Source: an uncultured virus (IMG/VR IMGVR_UViG_3300030329_003992) (lineage: Duplodnaviria > Heunggongvirae > Uroviricota > Caudoviricetes). Taken from it: a stretch of 64,000 nt of DNA. Location: the IMG/VR virus record IMGVR_UViG_3300030329_003992; one strand, given 5' to 3'. Below are positions 34,993 through 57,533 of this stretch, one piece after another; the first letter of the stretch is position 1, and each line of letters opens with the position of its first letter. The notes beneath the pieces are model-generated. The model was not told the origin of the DNA and searched no databases. It saw only the letters and a program-made list of their open reading frames with translations. The position numbers and the translations under genes were made by a program.

Positions 34993-35373
34993 ATGGCAAA
35001 TACATTCAAAGTAAAAACATTAAGCGCAATAAAATCAGATTCTGCAGATACTTTATACAGTTGTGCACAATCTACAACGGCAGTTTTATTGGGTTTGACA
35101 GTTACAAATACAAATACATCAACAGCAATTACTTGTACTGCTACGTTAGAATCAGATACAGCAGAAACTAAAACAGTTGCGTCAGCAGATGATACAACTG
35201 AAACAAATACAAATGTTACTCTTTTACCAGCAACAGAAATTCCAATAGCATCTTCTCTTGAATTTTTCTCTGGTCAAAAAGTAGTATTACAAGCAACAGA
35301 CAAATTAAAAGTACAAACAAATAAATCAGGTTTATCAATGGATTGTACTTTAAGTTTAATGGAAATTACCTAA
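34993..35373 (+). CDS. Small fibre connector protein (MANTFK type)
   Basis: MANTFK start, IPxxSSLE...KVVL...DKL, SLMEIT end; follows the ALAIALG-terminated fibre. Confidence 0.65.
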   Translation: MANTFKVKTLSAIKSDSADTLYSCAQSTTAVLLGLTVTNTNTSTAITCTATLESDTAETKTVASADDTTETNTNVTLLPATEIPIASSLEFFSGQKVVLQATDKLKVQTNKSGLSMDCTLSLMEIT

Positions 35374-36164
35374 TGAAATTTATAGGTTCTGAATTCAGCA
35401 CAAATATTGGTCATTTCGCAATGCGTGCACCAGTAGCAAATACTACTGATGGTGCAAGCTTTGGTTTTTCATCTGCGGGTGAACATATGATCAGAATTGA
35501 TTCAACAGGAGTATTTTTAGCAAATGCAACTATTGCGGGTGACTTAACAGTACAAGGAACTACAAGTTCACAAGGAGAATCAGAATCCTCTGATATTGTT
35601 TTGACACCTGGTTCAGCACCTACTTCAACAACAAATAAATTATATAATCTAAGTTCAGGTGGATTAACTTTTTCAGGTTCAAAAGTAATAACCACAACTG
35701 CGACACCTGGTGCAGCACAAATATATTTTGGTGATGATAATGGAGATATAATAACATCATCCAATTGCCAGTTTAATTTAACATCTACAAATGTATTAAC
35801 AATTACTGGTGATATTAGTGCAACAGGTGACCTTATAACAGAAGCATCTGATTCAAGATTAAAAGATGTTTCAGGTGTTATAACAGACGGGTTAAGCAGA
35901 ATTGAAAATATTAATCCAGTTGAATTTAAATGGAATGAAGAAGCACAAACCAAATATGATGCAGATGATAATCCTCATGTTGGTTTAATTGCACAAGAAG
36001 TTGAAGCAACGGTTCCAGAAATAGTTAAACCATCTCCATGGAATGGACAATACAAAACATTACAATATGAAAAAATGGTTCCAATATTATTATCAGCCAT
36101 TAAAGAATTGAATGAAAAGGTAGAAAAACTAGAACAACAATTGGAAAAACATAACCATGAATAG
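35373..36164 (+). CDS. Tail fibre protein with C-terminal peptidase S74 intramolecular chaperone
   Basis: ASDSRLK, PVEFKW, GLIAQEVE, YEKMVPILLSAIKEL; start placed at the TAATG overlap. Confidence 0.88.
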   Translation: MKFIGSEFSTNIGHFAMRAPVANTTDGASFGFSSAGEHMIRIDSTGVFLANATIAGDLTVQGTTSSQGESESSDIVLTPGSAPTSTTNKLYNLSSGGLTFSGSKVITTTATPGAAQIYFGDDNGDIITSSNCQFNLTSTNVLTITGDISATGDLITEASDSRLKDVSGVITDGLSRIENINPVEFKWNEEAQTKYDADDNPHVGLIAQEVEATVPEIVKPSPWNGQYKTLQYEKMVPILLSAIKELNEKVEKLEQQLEKHNHE

Positions 36165-37380
36165 GCAAATAGAATATAGTCCAACTTTAAATGATAAATG
36201 TTTTCCATTAATTGAAGTTGATGAAAATGTAGTTACAATAAAACTTTTCATGGATGTTTTTGATGGAGATGCAGTAGAGCATAAAGCAGGAGGATTGCCA
36301 CCACTAGGATATAATTATGCAAATAATGTATCTGGACATACTGTGATGACAAGACATAATCTTCATATTAGTGAAGGTCAAACTTATGAAATTTTTAATG
36401 GTGATATTTGGGCAGATGATGCATCAAAACAAGGAAGATGGTTTAAATTTGTTGGTGGAGCTCAAATAAAAAGAAGTGAAGATAAAAAATATGTACAATT
36501 TAGAACAACAGTTTTTGATAGAAATATGGAAGATCCGTCTGAAGGATATGAAGTAGGAAAACCTGATACTCCTGAATGGATAGATTGTTCTTTTTGGTCA
36601 TTTGATTATTCCTTTTCTGGAATGAATTTCTTTTCACCATATAATTTATTATTAGAAACCAAATCATCCCGTATGTCAGGTATGAGACATGAAGCAAGAC
36701 AAAATTTTGTTTTTAAACCTGTACAAACACAACACATTGAAGGTAAAACATATTATTCTACTTCAGAATTTTCTAAAAGAATTGGTGGAATGTTTTTGTT
36801 TGATAAAGATGATGATTTTAGAAATGCTTCTTGGTTTGTTAAAACATATGGAACTCCAAATGATGTTGATACTTCATATTATAAACCAGAAGGTGATATA
36901 GCAGATTCATTGTGGAGAAGAAATGATCAACTTTTAGTTAATTATCAGCAACTTCCAAATCCTGCTATTCATTTACAAATGCCAGAGACAGTCCAAAGAG
37001 ATGCATTAGTAAAAGGAAAAATTTCATTAATAGATATAAGCGATCAATTGTTGATGGAAAATGGTGATATTTTTATTACTGATGGTGTTCAAGAATCAAA
37101 TATAGATATAAATTGGCCAAGTGATTATATAGATTCAAACACAAAAGAAGCTGTAAATTCTTATGTTTACAATAAAGATGTTACAGTTTATATAAAAACA
37201 GATTCAGGATATATTTCTAAAAATAAAATAAATTTAATTAATGGTAAGGGTGAATTTTATTTTAGAGCATTGGATTTACAAATAGATGATGAAGCAGAAA
37301 TAAAAATAGGATTTAAAACTTTTAGTAATGTTTTAAGTCATACAATAAAAGTAAATTCAGGGTCAATGGGGAGTCAGTAA
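36157..37380 (+). CDS. Hypothetical tail-associated protein with beta-rich C-terminal domain
   Basis: 407 aa ORF between fibre genes; C-terminal GYISKNKI...GKGEFYFRALDL...KIGFK. Confidence 0.55.
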   Translation: MNRQIEYSPTLNDKCFPLIEVDENVVTIKLFMDVFDGDAVEHKAGGLPPLGYNYANNVSGHTVMTRHNLHISEGQTYEIFNGDIWADDASKQGRWFKFVGGAQIKRSEDKKYVQFRTTVFDRNMEDPSEGYEVGKPDTPEWIDCSFWSFDYSFSGMNFFSPYNLLLETKSSRMSGMRHEARQNFVFKPVQTQHIEGKTYYSTSEFSKRIGGMFLFDKDDDFRNASWFVKTYGTPNDVDTSYYKPEGDIADSLWRRNDQLLVNYQQLPNPAIHLQMPETVQRDALVKGKISLIDISDQLLMENGDIFITDGVQESNIDINWPSDYIDSNTKEAVNSYVYNKDVTVYIKTDSGYISKNKINLINGKGEFYFRALDLQIDDEAEIKIGFKTFSNVLSHTIKVNSGSMGSQ

Positions 37381-37964
37381 TGGCTTTTAAGGTAGGAACA
37401 ACCACAATAGTAGATCACCCATTAGATGTCCATTTAATCGATTTTAAAGCAGTAGTTCATGATGATTTTTCTACATATTCTGATGAGACGTGGAAATGTG
37501 AAGATAAAATTATAGCACAATTTAAATTTTGCAAATGTTCAAATGCATTTGGTGTAGTTTGTCCTAGTTATCCAACTTGGGGATATGATCAAACTGGTAA
37601 TTGTAATCCAATTAACGCTGGTGACATGCCAGCACATTATAGTCATCATAGAAGTCAACCCCCAGAAACAAATTTTCATACTTATTGGTGTTGTATATCA
37701 TGCACTTGTGCTTTAAATGCGACTTGTTCAGGTTGTATTTGTCATTGTTATAAATCTTGGGCAAGTACTACCGCAGATGGGTTTTTGTACTTTTTTGATT
37801 TATGTGAATCTTTTCAAAACATATGTCCAGGGTTTTGGAAGACAGGAGGATATGGTAATTCTTTTCAATTGGACGAATATGATTTAGATAAAAGTGGTTA
37901 TTTTATTTGTGACAGATATTGTACCGCAAAAGGATTTGGTGTAACACAAAACCCAGGGACATAA
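37380..37964 (+). CDS. Cys-rich fibre-like protein (17 Cys in 194 aa)
   Basis: MAFKVG start; CKC, CCISCTC, CICHC; TAATG-coupled. Confidence 0.65.
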   Translation: MAFKVGTTTIVDHPLDVHLIDFKAVVHDDFSTYSDETWKCEDKIIAQFKFCKCSNAFGVVCPSYPTWGYDQTGNCNPINAGDMPAHYSHHRSQPPETNFHTYWCCISCTCALNATCSGCICHCYKSWASTTADGFLYFFDLCESFQNICPGFWKTGGYGNSFQLDEYDLDKSGYFICDRYCTAKGFGVTQNPGT

Positions 37965-37966
37965 CT

Positions 37967-39562
37967 ATGGCATTTAAAATTAATAACAAATATTTATATT
38001 CTACTGCGTTTGATGGTACTTCTGATAAAAGTTCACCAGTTATGCCGTTTGCAAAAACAGATGGTACATTTCCTATAGTTAATAGTTCCGTTACTACTTG
38101 TTTAGCTCCACCACCAGCTTGTTCTCCTACTTCATCTCTTGGATCTGGAACCGCTAGAAGATTTATGTCTAATAGAGATGGTGATGTAGCAACTGCAGAT
38201 GTTTCTCCATTTACTTATTTTAGAAAATTACAATGTGATATGGCAACTGGTGGGTCAAATCCAAATGGAGAAAATTTTTGTTTAGTTTCTCTTGATGATG
38301 TGGTAGGTTATGATGGGGGTGAATATGGGGGAGTTTCATCAACTACAAATTTTGTTGATCCAAACAATACATCAAACTTTCTTTTACCACCAATCCAATG
38401 TCAATCATCTGGTAGTAGAAAACTAAGTAATCTTTTTCACGGTTGGGCTGAGTCTGATTATGCAAGAAATTGGTTAGGAATTAATGGACCTCTCGGTGGA
38501 CCAAGAGCTGATCCAGTAGGAACTAGCGGATCAGGGCATGGATGTCGAGATTTTCCAGATTTATGTAAAGGTTCTTTGTGGGTTACGCCTTGGGGTTATA
38601 AAAAATATTCAGCAGAAATGACTTCATTTTATACTCATAGTGTAGGTGATTACGTAGAAACTTCTACTGGCAATGTTACAGCTAACAAATGTTGTGGAAC
38701 AATAACAAATGGTTCTGTAATGTGGAGAAATTGTTTCCACAATGCAACAAATTTTTTATGGCAACGTTGGACATCTGGTTACGGGGTAGATAGTACTAAT
38801 AGTCAAGTTACACCTGCTAGATTTGAATCTGGATGTGGTTCTATGGCAGTTGATGGTGGATCTCCATTTGCAGCAAAAAGATTCATGACGAGGATTTCTG
38901 TTGGTAGATGGGCTCCAGGATATCAAGTTAGACAAAATTGGTCTGGTTGTTGGCAGACTACAGATGAAACTTCAATTGATGGAGTAACTTCTTCTCCAAG
39001 TCAAATTCTTCCAGATAATTCTTACATTACAGGATGCCATGACAAAGGATCTAATTGTTTAAATTCAGGAAATTTTTCTTCTTATTCTTGGCATGGTGAA
39101 AACAAACTTTATGATCAATGGAATAATTGTAGTGCAACAAATAGTTGGGCGGTAGGGCAGCAATCAGCATGTGCGGATGGTACTTTTGATGGTGATTGGA
39201 TTTTTCCTCATTGTTATCATTGGCATGATCCGGCTCCACCAAAAGGGTTTCATGTTGGTATTGGATTTGAAGCGGATTTTAGTGATATTTGCTCTGATCG
39301 AGGATGCGCATCCCAAGGTGGAATGTATGGAATGATGGCAAATTCTATAATGTTAGAAAATCAATGGAATTTAACTTTCGCAACTTCATATCCTGCTAAT
39401 GTTGATTTTAAATATTGGAATGGAAATTTATGTTCATCTGGTGGATGTTGTAGTTTAGGAAAGGTTCCTCATTCTGGAACATTTTCACAAACAGCAAATA
39501 TTACTTTTAATTTTCAAAATAATGATGCTTGTTCTGGAATAACTTCTATAGCATATTCATAA
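37967..39562 (+). CDS. Cys/Trp/Gly/Ser-rich fibre-like protein
   Basis: Start placed at ATG 37967 (MAFKIN, like its neighbour); about 23 Cys and 17 Trp by hand count. Confidence 0.65.
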   Translation: MAFKINNKYLYSTAFDGTSDKSSPVMPFAKTDGTFPIVNSSVTTCLAPPPACSPTSSLGSGTARRFMSNRDGDVATADVSPFTYFRKLQCDMATGGSNPNGENFCLVSLDDVVGYDGGEYGGVSSTTNFVDPNNTSNFLLPPIQCQSSGSRKLSNLFHGWAESDYARNWLGINGPLGGPRADPVGTSGSGHGCRDFPDLCKGSLWVTPWGYKKYSAEMTSFYTHSVGDYVETSTGNVTANKCCGTITNGSVMWRNCFHNATNFLWQRWTSGYGVDSTNSQVTPARFESGCGSMAVDGGSPFAAKRFMTRISVGRWAPGYQVRQNWSGCWQTTDETSIDGVTSSPSQILPDNSYITGCHDKGSNCLNSGNFSSYSWHGENKLYDQWNNCSATNSWAVGQQSACADGTFDGDWIFPHCYHWHDPAPPKGFHVGIGFEADFSDICSDRGCASQGGMYGMMANSIMLENQWNLTFATSYPANVDFKYWNGNLCSSGGCCSLGKVPHSGTFSQTANITFNFQNNDACSGITSIAYS

Positions 39563-39599: not shown

Positions 39600-40433
39600 A
39601 TGGCTTTAAGATTTGGTGATACTGGAAAAAATATAAGACGTGATTTAGAAGTTAAATCAGATGGTTCTGTCTCTGTTTCTGCACAGATGATAGATCCTAG
39701 AACAATTCCAGGTGCTTACATATCAGGACAATTTTTCTTAAATGGCGTTAATATTAGTTCCACTGGTGATAATACAGACACGCAGACAGGAGCTTCTTTA
39801 AGACCATATAGTATTACTGATATAGGATTATTACAATATTCTTCATCTTGGTCGACACATCACAATGTATTATCAATAAAATATTCAAGAAATTGTAACT
39901 GTAAATGCAAATGTCAATGTAAGTGTAAATGCAAATGTAAGTGTAAATGCAAATGTAAGTGTAAATGCAAGTGCAAATGCAAGTGTAAATGTAAATGTAA
40001 ATGTGCTTGTAAGTGCAAGTGTAAATGTAAGTGTAAATGTGCTTGTGCTTGTTGGAGTGATTCAAGACTTAAAAATAATATAGAAGGTATGGAAGATGAT
40101 CAAAGTCTTGAAAAAATAAAACAAATTCAAGCTATTATGTTTAAATATAATGAAAAAGGTTTAGAATTTTATGAGGATGGATTAGTTCAAGCTCCAGCAG
40201 AAGGAGAAGATAATCCAGATGCACCATTAACAGAAGTTGCTAATGAAAATACAGTACAACAATTAGGATTTATGGCAGAAGAAATTGAACAAGTATTTCC
40301 TGAAATTGTTGATATGGTAGAATTAGAAAATCAAGAGTACAGAGCAGTTACATATGTACAAATGATTCCTGTTTTGTTGGAAGCAATTAAACAATTAAAT
40401 AAAAAGGTGGAAGATTTAGAAGACAAGGAGTGA
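39600..40433 (+). CDS. (Cys-X) repeat protein fused to a peptidase S74 chaperone domain
   Basis: GAGG RBS; 27 alternating Cys directly followed by WSDSRLKNNI, FKYN, GFMAEEIE, YVQMIPVLLEAIKQL. Confidence 0.85.
   Translation: MALRFGDTGKNIRRDLEVKSDGSVSVSAQMIDPRTIPGAYISGQFFLNGVNISSTGDNTDTQTGASLRPYSITDIGLLQYSSSWSTHHNVLSIKYSRNCNCKCKCQCKCKCKCKCKCKCKCKCKCKCKCKCKCKCACKCKCKCKCKCACACWSDSRLKNNIEGMEDDQSLEKIKQIQAIMFKYNEKGLEFYEDGLVQAPAEGEDNPDAPLTEVANENTVQQLGFMAEEIEQVFPEIVDMVELENQEYRAVTYVQMIPVLLEAIKQLNKKVEDLEDKE
39894..40052 (+). repeat. Hexamer coding repeat (TGY-NNN) encoding 27 Cys with 21 Lys, 3 Ala, 1 Asn, 1 Gln between them
   Basis: Read directly; TGT/TGC and AAA/AAG vary, with a recurring 18-bp unit TGTAAGTGTAAATGCAAA. 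Confidence 0.97.
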
Positions 40434-41100: not shown

Positions 41101-41649
41101 ATGTTATATGATCATATAGTTTTTCCTGGAGCAATTGATGAAATTATTGATGAATCACAAATGGTTCTTGAGGATTTAAAATCAAAGGGTTCATCATCTT
41201 CAGGTGTAGGTAAAAATGTTGATGTTAGTTGGTACGGCGGTGGTTATGTTAGTAATATTGAAGATAATGTTTTTTATTATTTTAAAAGAGCGAATCTTAT
41301 AAATTTTGGTTATAGTATTGATTATACTGAAGCATGTAGATGGGAACAATATAAACAAGGTGGAAGTTATTCCTTGAGAAAAGAATTGAATCATTTTTAT
41401 CAAAATCATATTGATAGAAAATTGGTTGCAGTAGTAAATATGAATGATTCTTTTGATCCAAAAAAGGATGGTGGTGGAATTATTCTATATGAATCTGATA
41501 GAAAAAGAACACCAGTTGATGATATTTTTTATAAAAAAAGAGGATCTATAGTGGTCTTTAATGTTTTTACAGGATATGAAATAGAAGAAGTTAAATGTGA
41601 AAATTTACAATACTTATTTTGTTTTTGTGTAGGAGATAAATGGCGTTAA
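41101..41649 (+). CDS. Degenerate PKHD-like 2OG-Fe(II) oxygenase homolog
   Basis: DRKL, GGG, RGSIVVF, G.KWR end; no HxD...H triad. Confidence 0.6.
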   Translation: MLYDHIVFPGAIDEIIDESQMVLEDLKSKGSSSSGVGKNVDVSWYGGGYVSNIEDNVFYYFKRANLINFGYSIDYTEACRWEQYKQGGSYSLRKELNHFYQNHIDRKLVAVVNMNDSFDPKKDGGGIILYESDRKRTPVDDIFYKKRGSIVVFNVFTGYEIEEVKCENLQYLFCFCVGDKWR

Positions 41650-43661
41650 ATCATATAGCAATATTAGGAAACAGTTTAGAGTCTAGATTAATGGCTCTTT
41701 GTGTTAAGTTAGCTGAACCTGATATGGAAGTTAAAATATATACAAATGGTCAAGACTATTCAATGAACATTCTTAGACCTGTAGGAAATTCTTTATGTGC
41801 ACAAGGACTTAAATTTTTACATGATTATTGTGGAATTAATAAAGAAACTTTTTGGACAAGAACTAATTCTACTCTTGCGATGGGAGAAGCATTTCAACAT
41901 AATAAACAGGATGGTTCTACAGAAAATGTATATTTACCATTACTAGGATCACATTTTCCAAATAGATTAGTTCATTATCAATGCGCAATAAAAAATTTTC
42001 ATCCAGATCTAGAGGAGAATGAACAATTTAGATTATTCTTAGAATATATTTTAATGAAATATCCAAATTCTAAAAATGCTATTACTGATACTTTAACTTG
42101 GTTTGCACCAGACAAGTATCATGCGGATAAACATTTAGAACACTTTTTTAATTTGGAAAATGCTATAATAGCTTCTGCTCCTGATGCAGATGATTTTCAA
42201 GTTGCGGAGGGAATGCCTGTTTGTTATGATTTTGATAGTATTAAATCTTTAATGGATGAAAAAATTACATCACTAAACATTCCAATAATTACTGATACAA
42301 TTCAAAGTATAACCGTTGAGCAATCAACTTCTCCTTATCTTGGTGCAGGAATGGTTTATGATCCAAATCTTGATGAATATGTTTCACGAGATCAAATTAA
42401 TGTTTTGAAAAATGAATATGATTCTTCTTTAAATACTTTGGGAAATGTTTTTGGAGAAGATGTTTATGGTGAAGGTGGATTGGAATATCATGCAACAAAT
42501 TTATTAGGAAAAGATTACAAAAATATTACAAAAATAACAATTGGCGGAACAGAATTTGATGTAGATTTTGTGGTTGATTGTGGTTGTACACATTCTCAAG
42601 TTGAAGATTTTATAGAAACTGATGGACCAAAAACTTCTATAAATGAAACATTTCCTTGGACACAATATAAAGAATATGAATCTTCAAGACATCATATGCA
42701 ATGTCATACTTTGTTTTATACAGACGGAATACCAAATGGTGCAAGATGTCACGAGGTTTATAGAAATAAAACAATTCATAAAGAATTTCAATTAGTTGAC
42801 GCACCTGTTGATGGTGTTACAGGACTTCATGCTAGTAAATACTTGGCTGGAGCAAAAGGAGACATTACAACAGTTTCTTTAAGTGGAAGAAATGTTCAAG
42901 ACAACCATCTTATAAATGATAAATTTAATTCTAATTATGTTAAATTTGATTTAAAACGTCAAGCGTTGAATCCAGCAATGAATGAGGATTCTGTTAATTT
43001 GTTTAGATATGCGTATATGGTACAAAAGAAAATATCTAATATTAATAAAGACCCAAGAAATCTACCAATATATTTGGGTTCAATACAATCTGTTTGGTAT
43101 GCTAATAGAAACGCATTTAAAAGAATGGCTTATTATGTTTGGGATAATAATACCATTGGCCCAGGATGGGAGTGGGCTAATAGTGTTCCGACATTTTTTC
43201 AAAACTTATTTGATTCTTGGAATGGTGGATTACCAAGATTACCAGGTATTGTAGATTATGCTGGGCAATCATTTTCATCTACATTCATTACGAAAGATTA
43301 TATCAATGAAGGAAGAATGCCTGGGTTGTCAGGTTATGGTGGATATATGGATAGAGAATGGGCATATGTTGCAGAAGCTAGGGGTAAAGTAACACAAGAT
43401 TTTTCTTCTAAATTTACTGGTGAACATGCTGACATTTTTGAGGATCTTAGGTTAATATCTATTTTACTTAAATATAAGTTTTATGAATTTGGATCATTAA
43501 CATTTGAAGAATTCAGATCTAGACATTTAGTTGGTGATGATTCTTTAAATCCTATTACTGGTAATCATATTGTTTTAGAGGATGGAACAGGAAAATTATT
43601 AACAAAGCATAGGTATATTCAAATGAAAGAATATGCAACTTCAGAAGATAGTTCTATATGA
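41640..43661 (+). CDS. Highly divergent tryptophan-halogenase-like protein
   Basis: HIAILG N-terminal strand, RTNSTLAMG (cf. KTGATVKLG), DFVVDCG; lacks GxGxxG, catalytic Lys and WxWxIP. Confidence 0.5.
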   Translation: MALNHIAILGNSLESRLMALCVKLAEPDMEVKIYTNGQDYSMNILRPVGNSLCAQGLKFLHDYCGINKETFWTRTNSTLAMGEAFQHNKQDGSTENVYLPLLGSHFPNRLVHYQCAIKNFHPDLEENEQFRLFLEYILMKYPNSKNAITDTLTWFAPDKYHADKHLEHFFNLENAIIASAPDADDFQVAEGMPVCYDFDSIKSLMDEKITSLNIPIITDTIQSITVEQSTSPYLGAGMVYDPNLDEYVSRDQINVLKNEYDSSLNTLGNVFGEDVYGEGGLEYHATNLLGKDYKNITKITIGGTEFDVDFVVDCGCTHSQVEDFIETDGPKTSINETFPWTQYKEYESSRHHMQCHTLFYTDGIPNGARCHEVYRNKTIHKEFQLVDAPVDGVTGLHASKYLAGAKGDITTVSLSGRNVQDNHLINDKFNSNYVKFDLKRQALNPAMNEDSVNLFRYAYMVQKKISNINKDPRNLPIYLGSIQSVWYANRNAFKRMAYYVWDNNTIGPGWEWANSVPTFFQNLFDSWNGGLPRLPGIVDYAGQSFSSTFITKDYINEGRMPGLSGYGGYMDREWAYVAEARGKVTQDFSSKFTGEHADIFEDLRLISILLKYKFYEFGSLTFEEFRSRHLVGDDSLNPITGNHIVLEDGTGKLLTKHRYIQMKEYATSEDSSI

Positions 43662-48432: not shown

Positions 48433-49124
48433 TTACAAGTCCAAACCAAATAAACACGCATAGACATACCTCATTAGAGGAACATAATTATAATGAAATG
48501 TCTGATGCAAGAAAACCTTATTTTTTTAAAAGACAAATATTTTCAGATTCAGAGTGTGACTTGTTGTGGTCATATTGGAATGAGGATGAATGTTTTGTTG
48601 AAGATGATGTCACTCCTGACAGTCCATGGTACAAATATTTTAGAGAGTTGAGAAGTAGAAAACATATGTTTTTGGAGGGAAATTTTAATTCAACTCCACC
48701 AAAGAAAGGACTTCTTACAGAAATTCCTTATGATTTACTATGGTTAGAAAAAAGAATACATTATTATGTTGAACAAGCAAACAAGGAATGTTTCTATTTA
48801 GATATTAGTTTTGGATTAATGTCTAAACAATTAATGTATTATGGTGTAGGTGATTGGTTTCAACCACATGATGATACAAATCATTGGGATAATCATCATT
48901 ATGATAGAAAGTTAACAATTATAATTCAATTGTCTGATGGTGAAGACTATGAAGGTGGATATACTACAGTTGGTGAACCAGGAGAATTTGAACAACCAAA
49001 ACATCAAAAAGAACGTGGAAGTATTTTTATATTCCCTACATTTTTAACTCATGCAGTTAGTAAAATAACAAGTGGTGAAAGAAAGGCATTTATATGTTGG
49101 TACATTGGCCCGAAGTTCCGGTAA
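48429..49124 (+). CDS. PKHD-type 2OG-Fe(II) oxygenase, intact
   Basis: PHDD, RKLTIIIQLS, YEGG, FPTFLTHAV, SGERK, GPKFR. Confidence 0.9.
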   Translation: MITSPNQINTHRHTSLEEHNYNEMSDARKPYFFKRQIFSDSECDLLWSYWNEDECFVEDDVTPDSPWYKYFRELRSRKHMFLEGNFNSTPPKKGLLTEIPYDLLWLEKRIHYYVEQANKECFYLDISFGLMSKQLMYYGVGDWFQPHDDTNHWDNHHYDRKLTIIIQLSDGEDYEGGYTTVGEPGEFEQPKHQKERGSIFIFPTFLTHAVSKITSGERKAFICWYIGPKFR

Positions 49125-50747: not shown

Positions 50748-51954
50748 ACCAAAACATTATTGTCCAATTCCTTTTTTTAGTATTGAATTATATGATGACC
50801 ATGTGGCCAAATTGTGCTGTAATAGCGGAAGGAGATTTTATTTTGAAAAAGATTTAAAAGATTTTTGGCATGGTGACGCAATAGAGTCTGTAAGAGAAAA
50901 GATGACCAATGACGAATGGAATTCAGATTGTCAATTGTGTTATGATAGAGAAGATTTGTTTAATCATTCAAAAAGAGTTGATGAAATTAAACAGATGGGA
51001 AATAATCATTTGAAAAAACCTTTAGCAATGCCAACTCATCTGCAATTAAATTTATCAAATGTTTGTAATTTAAAATGTATCATGTGCGCACCAAAGTACT
51101 CAACAAAATGGAATGAAGATGTAGAGTCATTAGGTAAATTGAGAGAGAATTTGTATGTAGAGCCCGTAAAGAAAATATCAGAAAAAGTTTTAACAACAAC
51201 TATAAGAGATTTTATAAACACAAGATCTTTTGCTGAAAAAACTATAGAAATATATGGAGGAGAACCATTTCTATCTAAAGAGTTTTGGAGAATCGTTGAC
51301 AATACTCCTTATCAAAAGTTAAGAAATGTTAGATTTAAATGTAATACAAATGGCACTATCATGAATGATGCTATCATGAAGAATTTAAAAAAGTTTAAAA
51401 AGAATATAATAAATATGAGCATTGATGGGGTGGGAGAAATATTTGAATTTCAAAGATTTCCTGCAAAATGGGAAAAGGTTGAAAAAAACATGAACATATT
51501 AAAAAAATATGGTGATAAATACAGATTTAAATTTACAGTTGATTTATATTATACACTATCATCATTTAACGCAGTTGGATTGTCAGAGTTCATTGATTAT
51601 TGTAAAGAAAAAGGTTGGAGATATTATATTAATGTTGCGGACAATGAACCACTTCCTGATGACGTACCTTTTTTAAACAGAAGAACAAAATCAAAAGTAC
51701 AAGAATATGGCGGTAAAGGATTCACTCATCCATGTATGCTTCCCCAAGAAGTTAAAGAAAAAATATTAAATGAAATTGAAGGTAAAGTAGATAATCTTTA
51801 CTGGAAAAAAATAAAGAATTCTTTTTTTGACACAAAAGGATTTAGTTTAGAAAAGTTGAACAACTTCAAAAATTATTGTGATTTGATAAAAGAAGTTAGG
51901 GGATTAGATTTTTTGGAAATGTTAAAGAGAAGGTATAATTATGAGTATACTTAA
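50740..51954 (+). CDS. Radical SAM protein with N-terminal twitch/SPASM-like Cys cluster
   Basis: N-terminal CPIPF...LCC...CQLC; CNLKCIMC; GGEPF; NTNGT; SIDG. Confidence 0.9.
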   Translation: MNRPKHYCPIPFFSIELYDDHVAKLCCNSGRRFYFEKDLKDFWHGDAIESVREKMTNDEWNSDCQLCYDREDLFNHSKRVDEIKQMGNNHLKKPLAMPTHLQLNLSNVCNLKCIMCAPKYSTKWNEDVESLGKLRENLYVEPVKKISEKVLTTTIRDFINTRSFAEKTIEIYGGEPFLSKEFWRIVDNTPYQKLRNVRFKCNTNGTIMNDAIMKNLKKFKKNIINMSIDGVGEIFEFQRFPAKWEKVEKNMNILKKYGDKYRFKFTVDLYYTLSSFNAVGLSEFIDYCKEKGWRYYINVADNEPLPDDVPFLNRRTKSKVQEYGGKGFTHPCMLPQEVKEKILNEIEGKVDNLYWKKIKNSFFDTKGFSLEKLNNFKNYCDLIKEVRGLDFLEMLKRRYNYEYT

Positions 51955-52714
51955 TAATGATGTTTTAGTTCAAGAGACTCCAACAAAATTGACTTTGGAA
52001 AAGGTTTTAAATTATGTTATAGATAAAACAGGCATTAACATAACAAAGTATCCAACTGTAAATCAATTAAGAGAGGGTGATGTTAAATATGGTGGAGAAA
52101 CAACCAAATTTAAAATGGATGTAAAAAAATTTAATAAAGATTTTAAATATTGGTTTCAAGATATTGCTGGTAAAAATGGGTTTACAAGTAACTGTAAAGT
52201 TGAATGCTCTTTAAAACAATTAACTCCCAAGAGTCACCAAGTTCATACAGATAGTGACAATTCTTTTGGTGATCATCATACAGTATTTGCTAGATTTTCT
52301 ATCCCATTGTCAGTATCACCACCAACAATATATTATGATAAATGTATGTTTGATGATGAATTTTATACTAGGGTATCAAAAACTAAATTCAAAACAATTA
52401 CAAAACAAGGACGTTGGGAAGAATTTGAACAAGAAGAATTTGTTGATTTGACAACACAAGAAAGAATGCCAATATCTGGTGAGGCTTATACTCAAGAAGA
52501 TATGAAAAATAATAAAATTACTCACATAGGACCAGAACAAGTTTTTGGTTTGAACATATATAAAATTTGTGAATGGGAACCAGGAACAATTCAGTTTTTT
52601 CCTTGTTCCTTATTACATAGTAGTTCAGATCATATACAATGGAATGAAGAAGAATTTGTAAACAAGTATTTCTTGACAGGAGTTTTATATGACCAGAATG
52701 TTACGCGTCATTGA
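51941..52714 (+). CDS. Divergent 2OG-Fe(II)/cupin-like oxygenase (paralog 2)
   Basis: VHTD, IPL, GLNI...WEPG...LLHSS. Confidence 0.6.
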   Translation: MSILNNDVLVQETPTKLTLEKVLNYVIDKTGINITKYPTVNQLREGDVKYGGETTKFKMDVKKFNKDFKYWFQDIAGKNGFTSNCKVECSLKQLTPKSHQVHTDSDNSFGDHHTVFARFSIPLSVSPPTIYYDKCMFDDEFYTRVSKTKFKTITKQGRWEEFEQEEFVDLTTQERMPISGEAYTQEDMKNNKITHIGPEQVFGLNIYKICEWEPGTIQFFPCSLLHSSSDHIQWNEEEFVNKYFLTGVLYDQNVTRH

Positions 52715-53849
52715 TAAGATAAGAGTTATTGGTGCGGGTACAACAGGACTTATTTTTGCGACATATTTCAAAAAAATGCTTCCTGATATTGAAATAGATT
52801 TGTATTATGATCCTAATAAGAAACCTTTAGTTGTTGGTGAAAGCATGCAACCTTACATGAGGTTTTTCTTTGAAAAGGTATTTGATGATGAATCTTGGAT
52901 GGATCAAACAAACGCAACTTATAAGTTTTATATAAAACATGATGGTTGGGCAAATGAAAATAGTTCTATGATATTTCCATTGTGTGATGATAGATTTGAT
53001 GATATTGAAGAATGCGAAAGAGAGATATTTTCTGCTGATAAAAATAATGTACCAGAGTGCTCATCAAGACACGCATGGCAAATGCAATCAGTTTTACTTC
53101 AACCAATATTGATTGAAAAATGTAAAGAGTTGGGAGTAAATTTAATTGAAGAAAATTATGATTTTTCTAACACAGATATATTTGCTATAGATTGTAGAGG
53201 TTTTGATGGTTTGGGTGGAGAGGTCATTTCACCTTTAATAATAAATGATACCGCTATAGCAGGTCATGTTAATCATTTTAAAGATACAGAACAAAGATAT
53301 TATACAAGAACTAATGCAACAGATAATGGATGGTTTTGGGAAATACCATTACAAAATAAAGTTGGTGTTGGTAGAGTTTACTGTTCAAAATATAATACAG
53401 AAGATGAAATAAAAAAACAATTGAATGAACAATATGGATTGGATACTTTTTTAAAAGTTCCCTTTAAAACCAAATACAAAGAAACTGTTTGTACTATGCA
53501 TACTTTAAAAGTTGGTTCTGCGGCAGCTTTCATAGAACCTTTGGAAGCAACAACTTTATTATTAGTAGTTTATTCTTGTTACCTTTTTAAAGAAATGTTG
53601 AAATCTTTTTCATTCAGATTAGATGATGATTTTGTTAAACATTATAATTTAAATTTTAAACAAATGATACAAAATCATATAGTTTTTATAGAAAGTTTTT
53701 ATGGTTTATCAGATAGAAATGATTCTCCGTATTGGAACGAAATAGATAAGCATAGAAAACAATTCAGAGATTCACATGAATGGCCTGAATTTTATGGTGA
53801 GTATATAAAGAAAAAAATGTACGATGGATTATCATATAACATTAAGTGA
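52689..53849 (+). CDS. Compact tryptophan halogenase-family flavoprotein
   Basis: VIGAGTTG, VGES, NATYK, IDCRGF, GWFWEIP, FIEPLEAT. Confidence 0.88.
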   Translation: MTRMLRVIDKIRVIGAGTTGLIFATYFKKMLPDIEIDLYYDPNKKPLVVGESMQPYMRFFFEKVFDDESWMDQTNATYKFYIKHDGWANENSSMIFPLCDDRFDDIEECEREIFSADKNNVPECSSRHAWQMQSVLLQPILIEKCKELGVNLIEENYDFSNTDIFAIDCRGFDGLGGEVISPLIINDTAIAGHVNHFKDTEQRYYTRTNATDNGWFWEIPLQNKVGVGRVYCSKYNTEDEIKKQLNEQYGLDTFLKVPFKTKYKETVCTMHTLKVGSAAAFIEPLEATTLLLVVYSCYLFKEMLKSFSFRLDDDFVKHYNLNFKQMIQNHIVFIESFYGLSDRNDSPYWNEIDKHRKQFRDSHEWPEFYGEYIKKKMYDGLSYNIK

Positions 53850-54399
53850 TACCAAACTTAGAAACGGTGTTATGAAGTTTAAAGAAGGCACTGTTAAACT
53901 AAGCGGTAAAATATTAGACATGGGATGTGGTGACATGCCATATCATAATGATCTGGGATCTGATGATGTGGTTGGTATTGATCTTCCAGATGATTTGAGA
54001 TTAAAAAGTACTTGGTCTAGATTTGAAGATAATGAATTTGATTGTGTTATTTCTTTTGGTGTTTTGCATTGGTTAGGAAATAAAAATTGGTTACAAGAAT
54101 CATATAGAGTTTTAAAAGATGGTGGTCTGTTTCATCATTACTTTTGGGAAAGAAAACAAATAGAAAAACCAGAAATAAGATTGTCAATGAGTGGTATGCC
54201 AACTCCATATAAGAGATCACAACAAGAAGCGTATGATGAATTTACTAAAGTAGGATTTAAAGTTGATCAATGTATAGATGTGAATCCTAAGATAATAGGT
54301 GCTAATCCCATGTTTAGGTTTCTCAAGATAAATAGTTTGAAATCTATTTTTGAAAAACAACCTAAAATACATTTTCTCAGAATTTGGGGAACAAAATGA
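53824..54399 (+). CDS. Class I SAM-dependent methyltransferase
   Basis: ILDMGCG, VGID, FDCVISFGVLHW, RVLKDGG. Confidence 0.88.
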   Translation: MDYHITLSDTKLRNGVMKFKEGTVKLSGKILDMGCGDMPYHNDLGSDDVVGIDLPDDLRLKSTWSRFEDNEFDCVISFGVLHWLGNKNWLQESYRVLKDGGLFHHYFWERKQIEKPEIRLSMSGMPTPYKRSQQEAYDEFTKVGFKVDQCIDVNPKIIGANPMFRFLKINSLKSIFEKQPKIHFLRIWGTK

Positions 54400-55247
54400 A
54401 TAAATTTACAACAGTTGATTTAAATGAAGATCAAATTAAAAATCTAAAAAGTTTAGAAGAATATACTAAATCATTCTTTTCAAACAATGAAATTTTTAAT
54501 GAATCAAATATAATTAATGTTAAAGAATTTCCTCAAGAGAGAAAGCATGTGGATGGTGGTATGTTTAAAAAATCACTAACGTATTCTGTTGGTGTTGTGG
54601 AAATGTATGAAACAATAACTAAAAATAATAATTCAATATACAGTAATTTTTACCAAGTGACAGAAGATGATGTTGATCTTTCAATATTTCAAAACTTTGT
54701 GGGTAGTTTTCATGATACAATTAAAAATCATGGTAATGAATTAAATCTTGATGAAGAAAATGTTGGAATAACTTTACAACTTTGTGAATATCCTTTAGCA
54801 CCAAATACAATGGTTACTAATCTGGATGTTGAAAATGCTGCATTCTCTTTTACTGTTTCAACTGATTGTAAAATATATTTTGAACCTCATGATGAATTTA
54901 TGCTAAGTAATAGTGGATTGTTGGTTACAGGCAACCATCCTTATTTCATGTTAAATTATAGAGACAAAACTTTATATGTTTTTTCAATTTTCATTATACA
55001 TGATGAAGAAGTTGATATTGAACCAGAACCAGAACCAGAAAAAAGAAATGTTAAATTAGAATATAGACCACCTTGGGGTAGACCAAAAGAAAATGAAGAA
55101 TTGACAGACCCCGCACAACAAACTTCTAAAACTAAAATGAATAAAGTTAAAATGGTTCCTGATGTAGAAAGAGTTGGAAGAAAAGATAGTCAATGGGGAG
55201 TAGATAAGTATACAGTTAGACCAAAAAGAAAAGATGATAAGACCTAA
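54396..55247 (+). CDS. Hypothetical protein
   Basis: ATGA-coupled start at 54396; EPEPEP linker and charged tail. Confidence 0.55.
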   Translation: MNKFTTVDLNEDQIKNLKSLEEYTKSFFSNNEIFNESNIINVKEFPQERKHVDGGMFKKSLTYSVGVVEMYETITKNNNSIYSNFYQVTEDDVDLSIFQNFVGSFHDTIKNHGNELNLDEENVGITLQLCEYPLAPNTMVTNLDVENAAFSFTVSTDCKIYFEPHDEFMLSNSGLLVTGNHPYFMLNYRDKTLYVFSIFIIHDEEVDIEPEPEPEKRNVKLEYRPPWGRPKENEELTDPAQQTSKTKMNKVKMVPDVERVGRKDSQWGVDKYTVRPKRKDDKT

Positions 55248-55977
55248 ATTACATACTTCAGTTTGGGATAAAAAAGAGATAGAAAATATATATAATAATT
55301 TAGATATTAACATTGAAGACAAAATTGATTATGCGGGGCGGCCAGTACATTGGAGTCAAGATTGTTTTGAAAAAAATAAACAATGGATATTTAATAAATT
55401 AAAGACATTATATACAGATATTAAGTATCATGAACTACAAGGTGAATTAATTGTTGCACCATGGCCTGCACCAATGCATCTTGATGCACAACATTCTAAT
55501 AAAAGACCTTTTTTACAAGTAGTCATACCATTAAAGTTCATAGGATCATTTGATAATTATAAATGGCAGGGATTATTTGTTTTTAAACAATATTGTGTTC
55601 ATGATAATCCAGAGGGATATGAGTGGCATATCATAGATAAGAATCCATATTTAAAAAGGTGGAAACTAAAAAAGATATTGCGTTCTTTACCTTGGTCAGA
55701 TGTTGATGGTAATAGAGTAAAACTAACAAACAAAAGATTGCATTCTGGTGAAGATTTTGGTGATGAAAAATATCATCAAGTCATTAAGAGTAAAAGATGG
55801 TTGGATGGATTTGAAATTGATTCATATTTTCCTTATGACATAGGTGATATGTTAGTGTTTAGTCCATATGTTTTACATTGTTCTGGTGATTTTACTAAAG
55901 ATAATATAGAGAAGAAAGTTTTCTTTAGAGTAAGAATTTATAAAGATGCAAAAATAAAAACTGGATATGCCATATAA
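55234..55977 (+). CDS. Divergent 2OG-Fe(II)/cupin-like oxygenase (paralog 3)
   Basis: MHLD, VVIPL, GFEI...IGD...VLHCSGDF. Confidence 0.6.
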   Translation: MIRPKLHTSVWDKKEIENIYNNLDINIEDKIDYAGRPVHWSQDCFEKNKQWIFNKLKTLYTDIKYHELQGELIVAPWPAPMHLDAQHSNKRPFLQVVIPLKFIGSFDNYKWQGLFVFKQYCVHDNPEGYEWHIIDKNPYLKRWKLKKILRSLPWSDVDGNRVKLTNKRLHSGEDFGDEKYHQVIKSKRWLDGFEIDSYFPYDIGDMLVFSPYVLHCSGDFTKDNIEKKVFFRVRIYKDAKIKTGYAI

Positions 55978-56560
55978 TTTAAATAAACCAATATTAAAAC
56001 CCCTGAATGATTCTTATTATGAAAAGGCGGTAGAATATTTAAAAATTAATGATGATGTTTCACTTGAGAAGAATCTAGAATATATAAAAGAAAAGTGGGG
56101 GTTATATGATTTAAAATTTGAAGGGACTGATACCGAAACTCCCATTAGTTTTAAATACACAGGTACTCCTGATGTTGTTTATGAATATGGAAAAACAGGC
56201 AAAGACTTAGGAATTAAATATATTGATGTTAGTCAAAAAACCATAGATTTGTATCATAAAATTCTTGAAACAGATAAAAATAGTTTGTTAATTGATTATC
56301 AAAATAGTTTGGACATAAGTGAGGTGGTATCAGAATCTTTTAAATTGGAGTCATATATAAATGTTTTTCCATCAGAATATAAAACAGATTCTTCTAAATA
56401 TAGTATTTTACATACAGACGCAAAAGGTCTGATGTTAGAGTACCAATCAATTGATATTGAAATAAATCAAATAGTTTTCTTTCCAAGTTCTGTCAGATAT
56501 AAATTTTCACAACCAAATGAAAATAAGTTTTATATAAAAACACTAGTACATGAAAATTGA
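55967..56560 (+). CDS. Hypothetical protein with a possibly degenerate 2OG-like C-terminus
   Basis: IVFFPSSVRY resembles the FPSxxxH strand with His replaced by Tyr. Confidence 0.4.
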   Translation: MPYNLNKPILKPLNDSYYEKAVEYLKINDDVSLEKNLEYIKEKWGLYDLKFEGTDTETPISFKYTGTPDVVYEYGKTGKDLGIKYIDVSQKTIDLYHKILETDKNSLLIDYQNSLDISEVVSESFKLESYINVFPSEYKTDSSKYSILHTDAKGLMLEYQSIDIEINQIVFFPSSVRYKFSQPNENKFYIKTLVHEN

Positions 56561-57533
56561 TATACCTACAATAGATTTTCTTTCAAAGGATGTTGAGCAA
56601 CAAGTTTGGGATGCCTTCACTAACTATGGCATGGCTCAATTTGCCAATCTTCATACTCCATGGAAACCAGATTTAGAAAAGTTCTTTTATTATGTTGTTA
56701 AGTTTTTTGATTTACCAGTAAATACAAAACACAAATATGCTGATGTCATGCAGTTTAAAAATCTTGGTTACATTTGGCCAGAGAGAGAAAAACTGGTGTT
56801 GAGTAATCCAGGAGACATGAAGGAAACTTTTAACTTTGTTGAAAAAAGTAAAATGCCAGAAATTTACTGGCCAAAAGAGATACCAGAGTTGAGAGAATAT
56901 GCTGAAAGATTTATAAGAATAAGTACATTAATTTCTTATGATTTACTTTATGTTTTTGAAAAACTTTTACAGCAACCAAGAGGACATTTTGTAGAGAAAC
57001 ATCTTCATGCAATTAGTGGTATGAGAATGATTCATTATCCTAAGTGGGAAAAAGAAATAGAAAAAAATCAATTTAGATGTGGAGCACATACAGATTTTGA
57101 TACATTTACTATATTGTATAGAGATGATTGTGAAGGACTACAAATATATTTAAATGATCAATGGTATGATGTTCCTGTAGTCAAAGATACCATAGTTGTT
57201 ATGTCAGCGGATATGTTACAGAGATGGTCTAATGGGAGATTTAAATCAACCCTACATAGAGTAGGTAATATTTCAATGGACAGATCAAGATATACTTTGA
57301 CTCATTTTGTTGGTCCTGCGAATGATACTATGATAAACAATTTAACAGATGAAGAAAACAAATATGAATCTTTGATGTCATCTGAATTTTTAGATTGGAG
57401 ATATAAGTATCAATTTGTAGATAATAAATTTGTAGAGATAGATAATTGTATCGCTACACAAAAAGAAACAATAAATGAGTATCATGATTTTGAAAGAATA
57501 CCAGAACATGATCAACCTCATTATTGGAGATAA
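56550..57533 (+). CDS. Isopenicillin N synthase-like 2OG-Fe(II) oxygenase
   Basis: IPTID, FFDLP, DMKETF, MRMIHYP, GAHTDF, GLQI, LQRWSNGRFKSTLHRV, RYT. Confidence 0.92.
   Translation: MKIDIPTIDFLSKDVEQQVWDAFTNYGMAQFANLHTPWKPDLEKFFYYVVKFFDLPVNTKHKYADVMQFKNLGYIWPEREKLVLSNPGDMKETFNFVEKSKMPEIYWPKEIPELREYAERFIRISTLISYDLLYVFEKLLQQPRGHFVEKHLHAISGMRMIHYPKWEKEIEKNQFRCGAHTDFDTFTILYRDDCEGLQIYLNDQWYDVPVVKDTIVVMSADMLQRWSNGRFKSTLHRVGNISMDRSRYTLTHFVGPANDTMINNLTDEENKYESLMSSEFLDWRYKYQFVDNKFVEIDNCIATQKETINEYHDFERIPEHDQPHYWR

Follow-up and report, generated by a model that had tools for sequence, protein, structure and literature searches.

According to the sections of Dieter et al. (2026, PMC13692751) drawn on here, the SPASM radical S-adenosylmethionine (SAM) enzyme CrpC of Methanococcus voltae puts ranthionine links on the Cys-repeat protein CrpA, which has an N-terminal stretch in common with CrpB. 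The nearest idea in print to the one pursued below is that of Iyer et al. (2010, PMC2938197), who, in the portion of the article used here, predicted that collagen-like or tail-collar proteins are modified by bacterial hydroxylases encoded together with them. For marine phages, the corresponding parts of Zaragoza-Solas et al. (2020, PMC7029224) describe a host recognition cluster of pelagimyophages and cyanomyophages, and those of Sullivan et al. (2010, PMC3037559) treat 2-oxoglutarate (2OG) oxygenases and prnA as sporadic cyanophage genes. Here we describe a locus in a 64,000-nucleotide stretch of an uncultured marine T4-like myophage (IMG/VR record IMGVR_UViG_3300030329_003992; hereafter the window), in which the gene of a SPASM radical SAM enzyme, 46416 (genes are named by their first position), lies in the same run as 39600, a short tail-fibre gene whose product carries a ladder of alternating Cys residues. 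The gene neighbourhoods of relatives support the SPASM enzyme and Cys-repeat fibre proteins as a pair, and the reading we favour, with fair though not strong confidence, is that the region is the distal part of a tail-fibre (host-recognition) island with a substrate-enzyme pair at its core, in which 46416 would modify the ladder.

All 27 Cys of 39600 sit in one run from N98 to C151, with Cys at every second residue; the positions between them are 21 Lys, 3 Ala, 1 Gln and 1 Asn, and the run opens N-C-N-C-K-C. It is followed by W152 and then by S153, the first residue of an S74 domain (PF13884 at 2.1e-10, residues 153-237, 41.1 bits against a gathering score of 22) that opens S-D-S-R-L-K in the sequence. 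Each ladder Cys is invariant in the alignment (5/5 sequences). When comparing the ladder with those of five relatives, we found that 39-43 of 44 residues are identical and that 15-19 of the identical residues (35-49%) differ in codon. Identical residues encoded by different codons indicate that selection acts on the ladder protein, and the ladder is thus, on codon evidence, under purifying selection at the protein level. An origin as a DNA microsatellite was ruled out by the same codon divergence at identical residues together with the mixed codons of the ladder (TGT/TGC and AAA/AAG).

The ladder protein is a paralog of the fibre protein 35373, with which its family aligns at hhalign 100%. The S74 domain of 35373 is matched by PF13884 at 1.4e-13 (51.3 bits, gathering score 22), and the protein also matches tail-fibre PHROGs, for example phrog_5668 at 4.5e-26. 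Homologs of 35373 head the module in those marine relatives whose flank extends that far; the flank of L194 (related loci carry L numbers) begins later. Two further Cys-rich proteins, 37380 and 37967, have no match in Pfam, PHROG or NCBIfam, and positional equivalents of 37380 are present in all marine relatives. The window proteins 37380, 37967 and 39600 begin with a common M-A-F-K-x-G, and across the window and nine relatives the small Cys-rich and ladder proteins share the N-terminus M-[A/S/T]-[F/L/I]-x-[I/V/F/L]-[G/N/...]. Several of the small Cys-rich proteins terminate in C-x-C, and we regard 37380 as a candidate further substrate on its sequence features.

The enzyme 46416 is matched by the Radical_SAM family PF04055 at 2.4e-12 and by the SPASM model TIGR04085 at 34.6 bits, above its cutoff of 27. 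Its CX3CX2C motif (C91, C95 and C98) is invariant in 30/30 sequences, and so are seven SPASM Cys (C336, C355, C389, C392, C398, C402 and C414), the signature for two auxiliary clusters. The top NCBIfam matches are all peptide maturases (PapB at 2.1e-20, nif11, HxsB, QhpD and SCIFF) and all fall far below cutoff. The closest solved relatives by sequence are 8vpo (1e-21), anSME (9e-15) and CteB (4e-13); the top Foldseek folds for a structure model (pLDDT, the predicted local distance difference test, 85.6) are anSME 4k39 (E 7.8e-12, template modelling (TM) scores of 0.53/0.64) and CteB 5why (2.4e-11), then ChlB, TigE, SkfB and SuiB. As judged from these matches and the model, 46416 is a SPASM enzyme of the peptide- or protein-modifying kind. 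A small basic open reading frame (ORF), 46201, lies just before it; homologs (40-63% identity) are found directly 5' of the radical SAM gene in L078, L187, L194, L197 and L198, and none of at least 60 aa was found in L001, L189, L192 or L195.

To relate the enzyme to its neighbours, a profile scan of prokaryotes with one genome per species gave 154 relatives of 46416, from which 80 loci were kept, with homologs of 32-42% identity. A locus was counted as paired if a same-strand ORF with N-C-x-C-x-C lay between -5 kb and +3 kb of the radical SAM gene, and the other ORFs of at least 60 aa served as controls. Such an ORF stands beside the 46416 homolog in 55 of the 80 loci, and the motif occurs in just 2 of 3,947 other ORFs of the same loci. 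It lies at most six residues from the ORF end in 44 of the 55. The 25 misses include 10 loci with less than 2.4 kb of upstream DNA, two with variant tails (L113 and L182) and eight that form a Ramlibacter/Variovorax clade. Searching viral contigs for the radical SAM enzyme returned nine loci: four (62-63% identity) keep the full gene order with a ladder run of 49-57 residues, and in the other five (L005-L009, 36-40% identity) the gene immediately after that of the radical SAM enzyme encodes a 312-aa protein with C-N-C-A-C-N-C.

The search from the substrate side gave a matching result. Scanning viral contigs for in-frame Cys-Lys codon repeats returned 92 loci, five of which encode long (CX)n S74 proteins with flanking sequence, and the radical SAM gene is present in 5/5 of them; the remaining repeats, on giant-virus and other contigs, are non-coding microsatellites or short junk ORFs and were set aside. 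A metagenome scan contributed six more relatives, diverged at 61-66% identity, as well as two loci in which the radical SAM enzyme is 100% identical to 46416. Counting distinct marine phage types with a flank that extends to the fibre genes (radical SAM enzyme 61-76% identical), we found the ladder protein in 10/10, with 25-30 Cys and mostly Lys between them.

An earlier note on this stretch, made from the sequence alone, had described three Cys-rich proteins, one of them with 27 alternating Cys, followed by a SPASM and a twitch radical SAM gene in a co-oriented run without gap or recognisable terminator, and had suggested testing whether (CX)n fibre genes and homologs of 46416 occur together. 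That co-occurrence is seen from the enzyme side (55/80) as well as the substrate side (5/5), the Cys-rich proteins are borne out (17, 23 and 27 Cys in 37380, 37967 and 39600), and both radical SAM enzymes, 46416 with TIGR04085 and 50740 with NF033640, score over cutoff. The gene run is likewise as described: every ORF from 34993 to 58309 is on the + strand with intergenic spacing of -59 to +37 nucleotides, the widest gap (37 nucleotides) falling just 5' of 39600, and the six terminator-like sites found between 34000 and 53999, all intragenic, are at chance level (6.0 +/- 2.3 in shuffles). The T4 late-promoter consensus (3 occurrences, 12 expected) was not informative.

The pairing extends to phages of other groups. 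In Achromobacter phage JWF, a siphovirus, the annotation of the fibre protein gp28 names a similarity to T4 gp36 and a Hint domain; the protein has N-C-N-C-D-C-N-C-N-C-S-C immediately before that domain, and the radical SAM gene lies one gene downstream in the tail module. The side tail fiber protein of Ralstonia phage RSP15 (Ackermannviridae) terminates N-C-Q-C-G-N and is followed by a gene similar to 36157, one further gene and then the radical SAM gene. Prophages regularly have a Cys-tailed fibre, a protein of ~280 aa, a protein of ~200 aa and the radical SAM enzyme, in this order; the ~200-aa proteins give weak 2OG matches (PF13759/PF13640, 2e-6 to 2e-4), 3/5 of them just over the Pfam cutoff. 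Tail-fibre PHROGs match 7 of 15 sampled tail-bearing proteins, with two collagen-like fibres at 3e-82 and 5e-89, and 63 tail bearers, grouped by the sequence of their bodies, form 7 clusters. A Hint-like domain follows the ladder in L177 and L179, and in every carrier the Cys tail is either a free C-terminus or stands before an S74 or Hint domain. Prophage and marine ladders open alike, with an aromatic residue, one or two further residues and N-C-N-C, so that the marine ladder resembles an expanded version of the common tail. In the enzyme tree, the marine clade is found with the loci of 72-88-aa Cys-tail proteins and a clade in a setting like that of peptides made on the ribosome and modified after translation (RiPPs), and the large prophage clade stands apart; the association therefore spans the whole enzyme family.

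Several further loci are worth recording in their own right. The sister clade (L105, L107-L110, L114, L116 and L121, from Ramlibacter, Variovorax and others) is chromosomal, non-phage and RiPP-like in setting, and the upstream genes there include an ATP-grasp-like one and one for a 750-810-aa protein; in L109 and L121 a 71-aa or 118-aa ORF with D-C-G-C lies just upstream of the radical SAM start or overlaps it. The 72-88-aa proteins of L106, L112, L113 and L115 (Bradyrhizobium and Rhodoplanes), some in tandem pairs, have Asn/Asp/Ala-Cys ladder ends beside the radical SAM gene, and Bradyrhizobium L106 has two Asp/Asn beta-hydroxylase-like genes 3' of it. In L005-L009, L123 and L129, which represent another phage group, a protein of ~300 aa comes directly after the radical SAM gene; its middle is Cys/Asn-rich and its C-terminal half basic and helical, and a firm 2OG oxygenase (PF13759 at 6.3e-17) is next.

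A third gene co-travels with the fibre and the radical SAM enzyme. The 36157 family aligns with the ~280-aa protein found next after the Cys-tailed fibre in 34 prophage loci (hhalign 99.5%, E 8.5e-23), and its member in L170 has a match at 1.5e-43 to phrog_290, minor tail protein. The window protein has no match in Pfam, PHROG or NCBIfam and no relative in the Protein Data Bank (PDB) by sequence. In its model (pLDDT 70.6), residues 265-405 align with intimin Ig-like domains (Z 9.7, root-mean-square deviation 2.5, 91 aligned residues). Foldseek with the whole model gave just TM 0.2 matches to GH2 beta-sandwich domains, which we rejected, and from BFVD only uncharacterised phage proteins. From its modelled fold, the 36157 family is probably a structural protein or adhesin, not an enzyme. 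Together, fibre, 36157 family and radical SAM enzyme are established as a unit by their recurrence as neighbours. The features of the region are collected in Table 1.

Table 1. Features of the fibre and enzyme region in the window (positions in the 64,000-nucleotide stretch).
Feature	Coordinates	Strand	Basis or remark
Short tail-fibre protein, 263 aa	35373..36164	+	C-terminal S74 domain; first gene of conserved module
36157-family ('P0') protein, all-beta, Ig-like C-terminal domain	36157..37380	+	hhalign, model
Small Cys-rich protein, 194 aa, 17 Cys	37380..37964	+	No family match
Cys-/Trp-rich protein, 531 aa, 23 Cys, 17 Trp	37967..39562	+	No family match
Short fibre paralog with Cys ladder and S74 domain, 277 aa	39600..40433	+	PF13884
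Cys ladder, N98-C151 of 39600	39891..40052	+	27 Cys in perfect two-residue repeat
Two 2OG-Fe(II) oxygenase paralogs	40438-41094, 41101-41649	+	Weak PF13640 (0.0042, 8.4e-4; below cutoff), hhalign 100% to 48429
Protein, 673 aa, N-terminal half Trp-halogenase-like	41640..43661	+	hhalign only
277-aa protein	43658..44491	+	No Pfam, PHROG or NCBIfam match
Trp_halogenase-family flavoprotein	44493..46223	+	PF04820 1.9e-76, phrog_2928 5.2e-88
Small basic ORF, 71 aa	46201..46416	+	Ends at first base of radical SAM start codon
Radical SAM enzyme with full SPASM domain	46416..47765	+	PF04055, TIGR04085
Two more 2OG-Fe(II) oxygenase paralogs	47773-48432, 48429-49124	+	PF13640, hhalign 100%
GT9-like (heptosyltransferase-like) candidate	49094..50002	+	ESM Atlas lead only
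Probable 2OG/cupin-type oxygenase, paralog of 55234	49986..50747	+	Invariant residues
Twitch radical SAM enzyme (N-terminal twitch)	50740..51954	+	NF033640
Probable 2OG/cupin-type oxygenase, last conserved-core gene	51941..52714	+	Invariant residues
Variable right-hand part: 52689, 53824, 54396, 55234, 55967, 56550	52689..57533	+	Pfam

S74 and Hint domains remove themselves from the chain, and the residue upstream becomes the new C-terminus. If the S74 domain of 39600 self-removes at the conserved Ser, as happens with endosialidase and T5 fibres, the ladder would be the extreme C-terminus of the mature fibre, which would then end in 27 Cys alternating mostly with Lys. Seven of the nine displayed ladders have a Trp after the last Cys and then S-D-x-x-L-K (at 40053-40058 in the window); L198 has a Leu after the last ladder Cys, and L189 and L001 are without the S-D-x-x-L-K junction. 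Self-cleavage could leave W152 at the C-terminus, a point of interest beside halogenase-family genes. We propose that 46416 would modify the ladder post-translationally and would probably also act on the C-x-C motifs of 37380 and 37967. The most likely chemistry would be that of the nearest characterised relatives of 46416, in which a neighbouring residue loses a hydrogen atom and Cys thioether cross-links are formed; for the N-C-N-C opening, an N-x-x-C reading as in the streptococcal Asn-Cys thioether system can serve as a lead only. Thioether links within or between the three fibre chains would give a covalently stapled, reduction-proof tip, with the 36157-family protein probably as its structural partner. 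The four PF13640-type 2OG paralogs that flank the radical SAM gene would probably hydroxylate the same proteins, in the ladder or at neighbouring residues, and the halogenase-family proteins, twitch radical SAM enzyme, GT9-like protein, methyltransferase and other oxygenases are co-inherited with the module in the marine lineage. The action of 46416 on the ladder, the type of bond and every other modification are proposed by analogy with characterised enzymes.

Several observations weigh against modification of the ladder by 46416 or against a wide extent of the module, and we set them out together. The 55 paired loci are not 55 independent events, with much of the co-occurrence inside related prophage families. 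The ladders of prophages and JWF have 3-7 Cys, and the residues between them are Asn (177), Asp (39) and Ala (19), never Lys; the 27-Cys, Lys-rich ladder therefore need not undergo the same reaction. Lys-type ladders are found in one marine lineage only and the Asn/Asp/Ala type everywhere else, a single transition. The enzyme itself misses the curated cutoffs of every characterised family compared: 73.2 bits (cutoff 340) for PapB NF047865, 50.3 (425) for SCIFF TIGR03974, 61 (453) for QhpD, 48.6 (349.45) for anSME TIGR03942 and 31.5 (525) for TIGR04463. It also appears, from the model, to be without a canonical RRE (RiPP recognition element), the leader-binding domain: residues 1-80 form three short strands (9-13, 18-22 and 27-29) and zero helices, a divergent binding domain being still possible, and there is no PqqD-type Pfam match. 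All relatives with the syntenic core belong to one lineage, and homologs of the genes in 52689-57533 are absent from them or stand in other places or orders; for example, the 52689 homolog lies 5' of the radical SAM gene in L192 and L196, and 53824 and 55234 have homologs in some relatives only. Of the cultured phage records, 68 contain the Trp-halogenase family (57 of them cyanophages, with Pelagibacter phage HTVC008M and others besides), and zero of the 68 belong to the 32 in which a 46416 homolog is present. HTVC008M (L184, 57442-65157) has five 2OG genes and a Trp-halogenase gene among baseplate, neck and terminase genes without a SPASM radical SAM gene, which means that 2OG and halogenase families sit in late structural operons even where the SPASM enzyme is missing. 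Finally, the window 2OG paralogs and the prophage 2OG families give no significant hhalign match to each other (probability at most 4%), and only the fold is common.

On the other side stands the order of the genes. The seventeen genes from 35373 to 52714 are syntenic in L187, L189, L192, L195, L197 and L198 where the flank covers them, and L194 has the same synteny from the small Cys proteins onward, with protein identities across this core of only 21-68%. In addition, 2OG-like genes recur within the fibre-to-radical SAM block of prophages, and we take the 2OG paralogs flanking the radical SAM gene as probable members of the module. Given the single lineage, the variable right side and the halogenases without radical SAM enzyme, we limit the unit to the fibre, the 36157 family and the radical SAM enzyme. 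A role of the entire 17 kb in tailoring fibre tips has partial support only. The earlier note had seen a precursor-plus-maturase cluster acting on structural proteins, of which the SPASM enzyme and Cys ladder pairing holds, and support for the wider set of maturases is weak, given the halogenase family in 68 phages without the radical SAM enzyme and a right-hand 5 kb that is not conserved.

How far the other enzymes of the run belong with the pair can be approached from two ends. One possibility, which we hold to be unlikely though worth keeping in view, is that the 17 kb is an ordinary accessory island of a marine T4-like phage, acting on small molecules, host lipopolysaccharide or DNA, with at most the radical SAM enzyme related to fibres. 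The relevant parts of PMC7029224 report host recognition clusters in which fibres stand with glycosyltransferases and radical SAM cassettes and interpret them as host-surface modification, those of PMC2938197 interpret tandem dioxygenase/Trp halogenase arrays of cyanophages as secondary-metabolite genes, and those of PMC3037559 interpret 2OG oxygenases as 2OG modulation or DNA repair; the halogenases without radical SAM enzyme and the variable right-hand 5 kb fit such an island as well. These published interpretations are likewise predictions. Content and order of seventeen genes kept despite a protein identity of only 24-65% are unusual for a hyperplastic region, and the recurrence of 2OG-like genes in the fibre-radical SAM block of unrelated prophages does not suit a fibre-independent island either. 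At the other end, we doubt, without dismissing it, that the whole 17-gene block 35373-52714 is one pathway, with thioether welds between the three ladder chains by the SPASM enzyme, 2OG hydroxylation of Lys or Asn, halogenase-family modification of the Trp at the new C-terminus, and glycosylation of the hydroxyls by the GT9-like protein; if it were, natural-product chemistry would be building a viral receptor-binding organ.

The enzymes concerned are assigned with varying firmness, and the catalogue of the earlier note stands in part. Among its three Trp-halogenase-like proteins, 44493 and 52689 are firm (PF04820 at 258 and 154.7 bits, gathering score 21; 52689 at 4.7e-45), and 41640 is partial: its N-terminal half alone aligns with the 44493 family (hhalign 96.2%, E 2.1e-9), it reaches just 6% with 52689, and it has no match in Pfam, PHROG or NCBIfam. 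By eye 44493 contains GGGTSG and W-x-W-x-I-P, which we take to be motifs of the family. Halogenating activity of these PF04820 proteins is predicted from sequence, and the family also has many functionally uncharacterised members. Where about ten 2OG-Fe(II)-like proteins had been counted, five are firm (40438, 41101, 47773, 48429 and 56550), three are probable, and 43658, 54396 and 55967 are unmatched. Both 40438 and 41101 are kept in all marine relatives; 48429 matches PF13640 at 1.2e-12 (49 bits, cutoff 27), 47773 matches phrog_61 at 2.4e-8, and 56550, a DIOX_N/2OG-FeII_Oxy oxygenase, matches PF03171 at 5.3e-21 (75.3 bits, cutoff 23).

The three probable ones are 49986, 55234 and 51941, which we assign on H-x-D...H and a basic residue; they have no Pfam or NCBIfam match, and the 49986 and 51941 family profiles find no solved relative in the PDB. 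H98, D100, H227, K240 and R244 are invariant in 13/13 sequences of the 49986 family, and H102, D104, H226 and K242 in 8/8 of the 51941 family; 49986 aligns with 55234 at hhalign 96.4%, and its ESM Atlas score for PhyH is weak (0.90). The 277-aa protein 43658 has a blastp homolog in L078 only, and relatives hold an ORF of ~190-290 aa in the same slot. For the proposed GT9-like enzyme 49094, ESM Atlas provides a lead (features at 0.98 to a viral cluster with PF01075 in 43% of members; structure at TM 0.78 to a GT9 cluster), and there is no Pfam match and no similarity to a weak GT9 match elsewhere in the window, at 9347. The twitch radical SAM enzyme 50740 reaches 227.1 bits with NF033640 (cutoff 170), its residues 5-397 covering profile positions 2-393 of 398; it is kept in all marine relatives, and cultured phages have only weak relatives, with ~25% identity in KVP40-like vibriophages. 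In the variable part, the methyltransferase 53824 was rightly named (PF08241 at 2.5e-9), and 54396 and 55967 found no family in the library scans.

A different view of the ladder itself, which we think quite improbable, is that it needs no enzyme and forms the metal-binding or disulfide core of a trimeric needle, with Cys turned to the axis and Lys out, the radical SAM enzyme serving another purpose. The strict two-residue period suits a beta-strand with one Cys face, the ladder lies directly before an S74 chaperone that folds trimeric beta-structures, and the modelled enzyme has no recognisable RRE. There is precedent in the T4 gp37 fibre tip, where metal ions lie along the axis at His-x-His sites. 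Such a core would leave unexplained why the radical SAM gene is paired with Cys tails in 55/80 loci as against 2 of 3,947 ORFs, and again in JWF, RSP15 and 10/10 marine relatives; metal binding and enzymatic modification can, moreover, coexist. Least probable of all, and hardly to be expected, is that 46416 acts like anSME and converts ladder Cys to formylglycine, whose aldehydes would form imine cross-links with neighbouring Lys amines as in collagen and elastin, a scheme that draws on 4k39 as top structural match, on anSME as second among solved relatives by sequence (9e-15), on a 46416 model that, like anSME, shows no canonical RRE and on a Cys/Lys alternation that would set aldehyde beside amine in the marine ladder, but which has against it a family score of 48.6 where the cutoff is 349.45, a ladder without the sulfatase motif C/S-x-P/A-x-R, and prophage and JWF ladders without any Lys, so that this chemistry cannot be general.

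The phage of the window carries, among other genes, a T4-type primase, an RNase H/flap nuclease and a B12-type ribonucleotide reductase; the top identities of its RNase H are 46% to cyanophage S-CREM1 and 43% to Methylophilales phage Melnitz. By megablast the 22-kb region has no match among cultured phages, and its G+C content is ~30%. Fibre genes occupy 15871-40433 and enzymes follow at 40438-57533, which fits a large island of fibres and fibre-unrelated-looking enzymes (a host recognition cluster). The fibre module begins with four giant genes (15871-34988; 2394, 1144, 751 and 1855 aa), the 1855-aa protein having dozens of copies of a short motif of the P-E-A-N-(I/V)-T-V-A-N-V type. Upstream of the fibre genes, 5457-12483 holds a second enzyme cluster with a Mom-like protein (PF25680, 3.6e-19), an FkbM methyltransferase, a GT1 glycosyltransferase, ThyX (6.2e-54), the weak GT9 match at 9347 (2.8e-4), another methyltransferase and several ORFs without assignment, which might serve to hypermodify or glycosylate DNA. 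Beyond the region, 57737-60143 encodes a RuvC-like resolvase (phrog_159, 3.4e-34) and a GT1 glycosyltransferase (PF00534, 1.6e-9; phrog_2170, 2.9e-28). Two ORFs at 62353-63766 have an N-terminal hydrophobic signal-like stretch, the second with a lipobox-like V-G-C by eye, and the library scans gave no family matches for them.

Phage receptor-binding proteins are usually viewed as plain polypeptides with their specificity in the sequence. The recurrence of the pair in T4-like phages, a siphovirus, Ackermannviridae and many prophages suggests that phages of several lineages probably modify their host-recognition tips chemically. If modification of the ladder by 46416 is true, host recognition and tip stability would rest on chemistry invisible to sequence-based host prediction and fibre engineering, and a large class of substrate-less phage 'auxiliary metabolic genes' would gain a concrete, testable substrate. 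It would also carry RiPP-type enzymology to large viral structural proteins, for which the only experimental precedent we found besides QhpC is the archaeal one in the consulted part of PMC13692751. A full-text literature search found no published link between a radical SAM enzyme and a Cys-tailed fibre, and the supplementary tables of PMC7029224 and PMC2938197 may hold related cassettes; radical SAM genes are mentioned in a Campylobacter phage paper and in the cyanophage S-SCSM2R paper, with no tie to fibres.

Among known systems, the S74 and Hint fibre domains are the most direct frame for the fibre proteins (PF13884 in 39600 and 35373, Hint-like domains in JWF gp28, L177 and L179), and we know of no described S74 or Hint case with a Cys ladder as the exposed end. 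Similar to PapB/freyrasin (NF047865) and CteB/SCIFF (TIGR03974; PDB 5wgg/5why), the locus has a SPASM enzyme with seven Cys and a Cys-rich substrate candidate encoded nearby. Unlike them, 46416 is under the family cutoffs and has no RRE seen in the model, and the candidate substrate is a 277-aa virion fibre protein in place of an exported leader-core peptide. The top structural match, anSME (PDB 4k36-4k39), acts directly on a Cys within a protein, and 46416 appears from its model to be, like anSME, without an RRE; there is, however, neither a sulfatase nor a sulfatase motif in the neighbourhood. In the Qhp system, the SPASM enzyme QhpD makes Cys thioethers within the protein subunit QhpC (as summarized in the part of PMC13692751 used here). 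The flavin monooxygenase QhpG modifies a Trp of the same subunit, and in the window halogenase-family flavoproteins likewise adjoin the radical SAM gene and a Trp follows the ladder, but the scores are far from these families (61 against 453 for QhpD; 17.9 and 16.7 against 240 for QhpG, faint at E ~1e-3) and there are no amine dehydrogenase genes.

Similar to the islands in the relevant parts of PMC7029224 and PMC2938197, the window belongs to a marine T4-like phage in which giant fibre genes are followed by many fibre-unrelated-looking enzymes; neither source, in those parts, connects Cys-tailed fibres with an enzyme of the SPASM radical SAM type. The closest counterpart is CrpC/CrpA as presented in the excerpted text of PMC13692751, where the SPASM radical SAM gene also adjoins a full-size protein with a C-terminal Cys repeat and where, like CrpA and CrpB, the substrate candidates of the window have a common N-terminus (of the M-A-F-K-I-G type). 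The two differ in that CrpC/CrpA is archaeal and cellular, the same excerpts making no mention of phages, that CrpC has a predicted RRE, of which the 46416 model gives no sign, that 46416 scores 31.5 against 525 for the CrpC family TIGR04463, and that the CrpA repeat is a 17-residue motif with C-x-x-Q/D and not a strict C-x. What would be new here is the application of a known chemistry, SPASM radical SAM modification of Cys-rich substrates, to a viral receptor-binding fibre, of which the window carries the most extreme ladder in this analysis.

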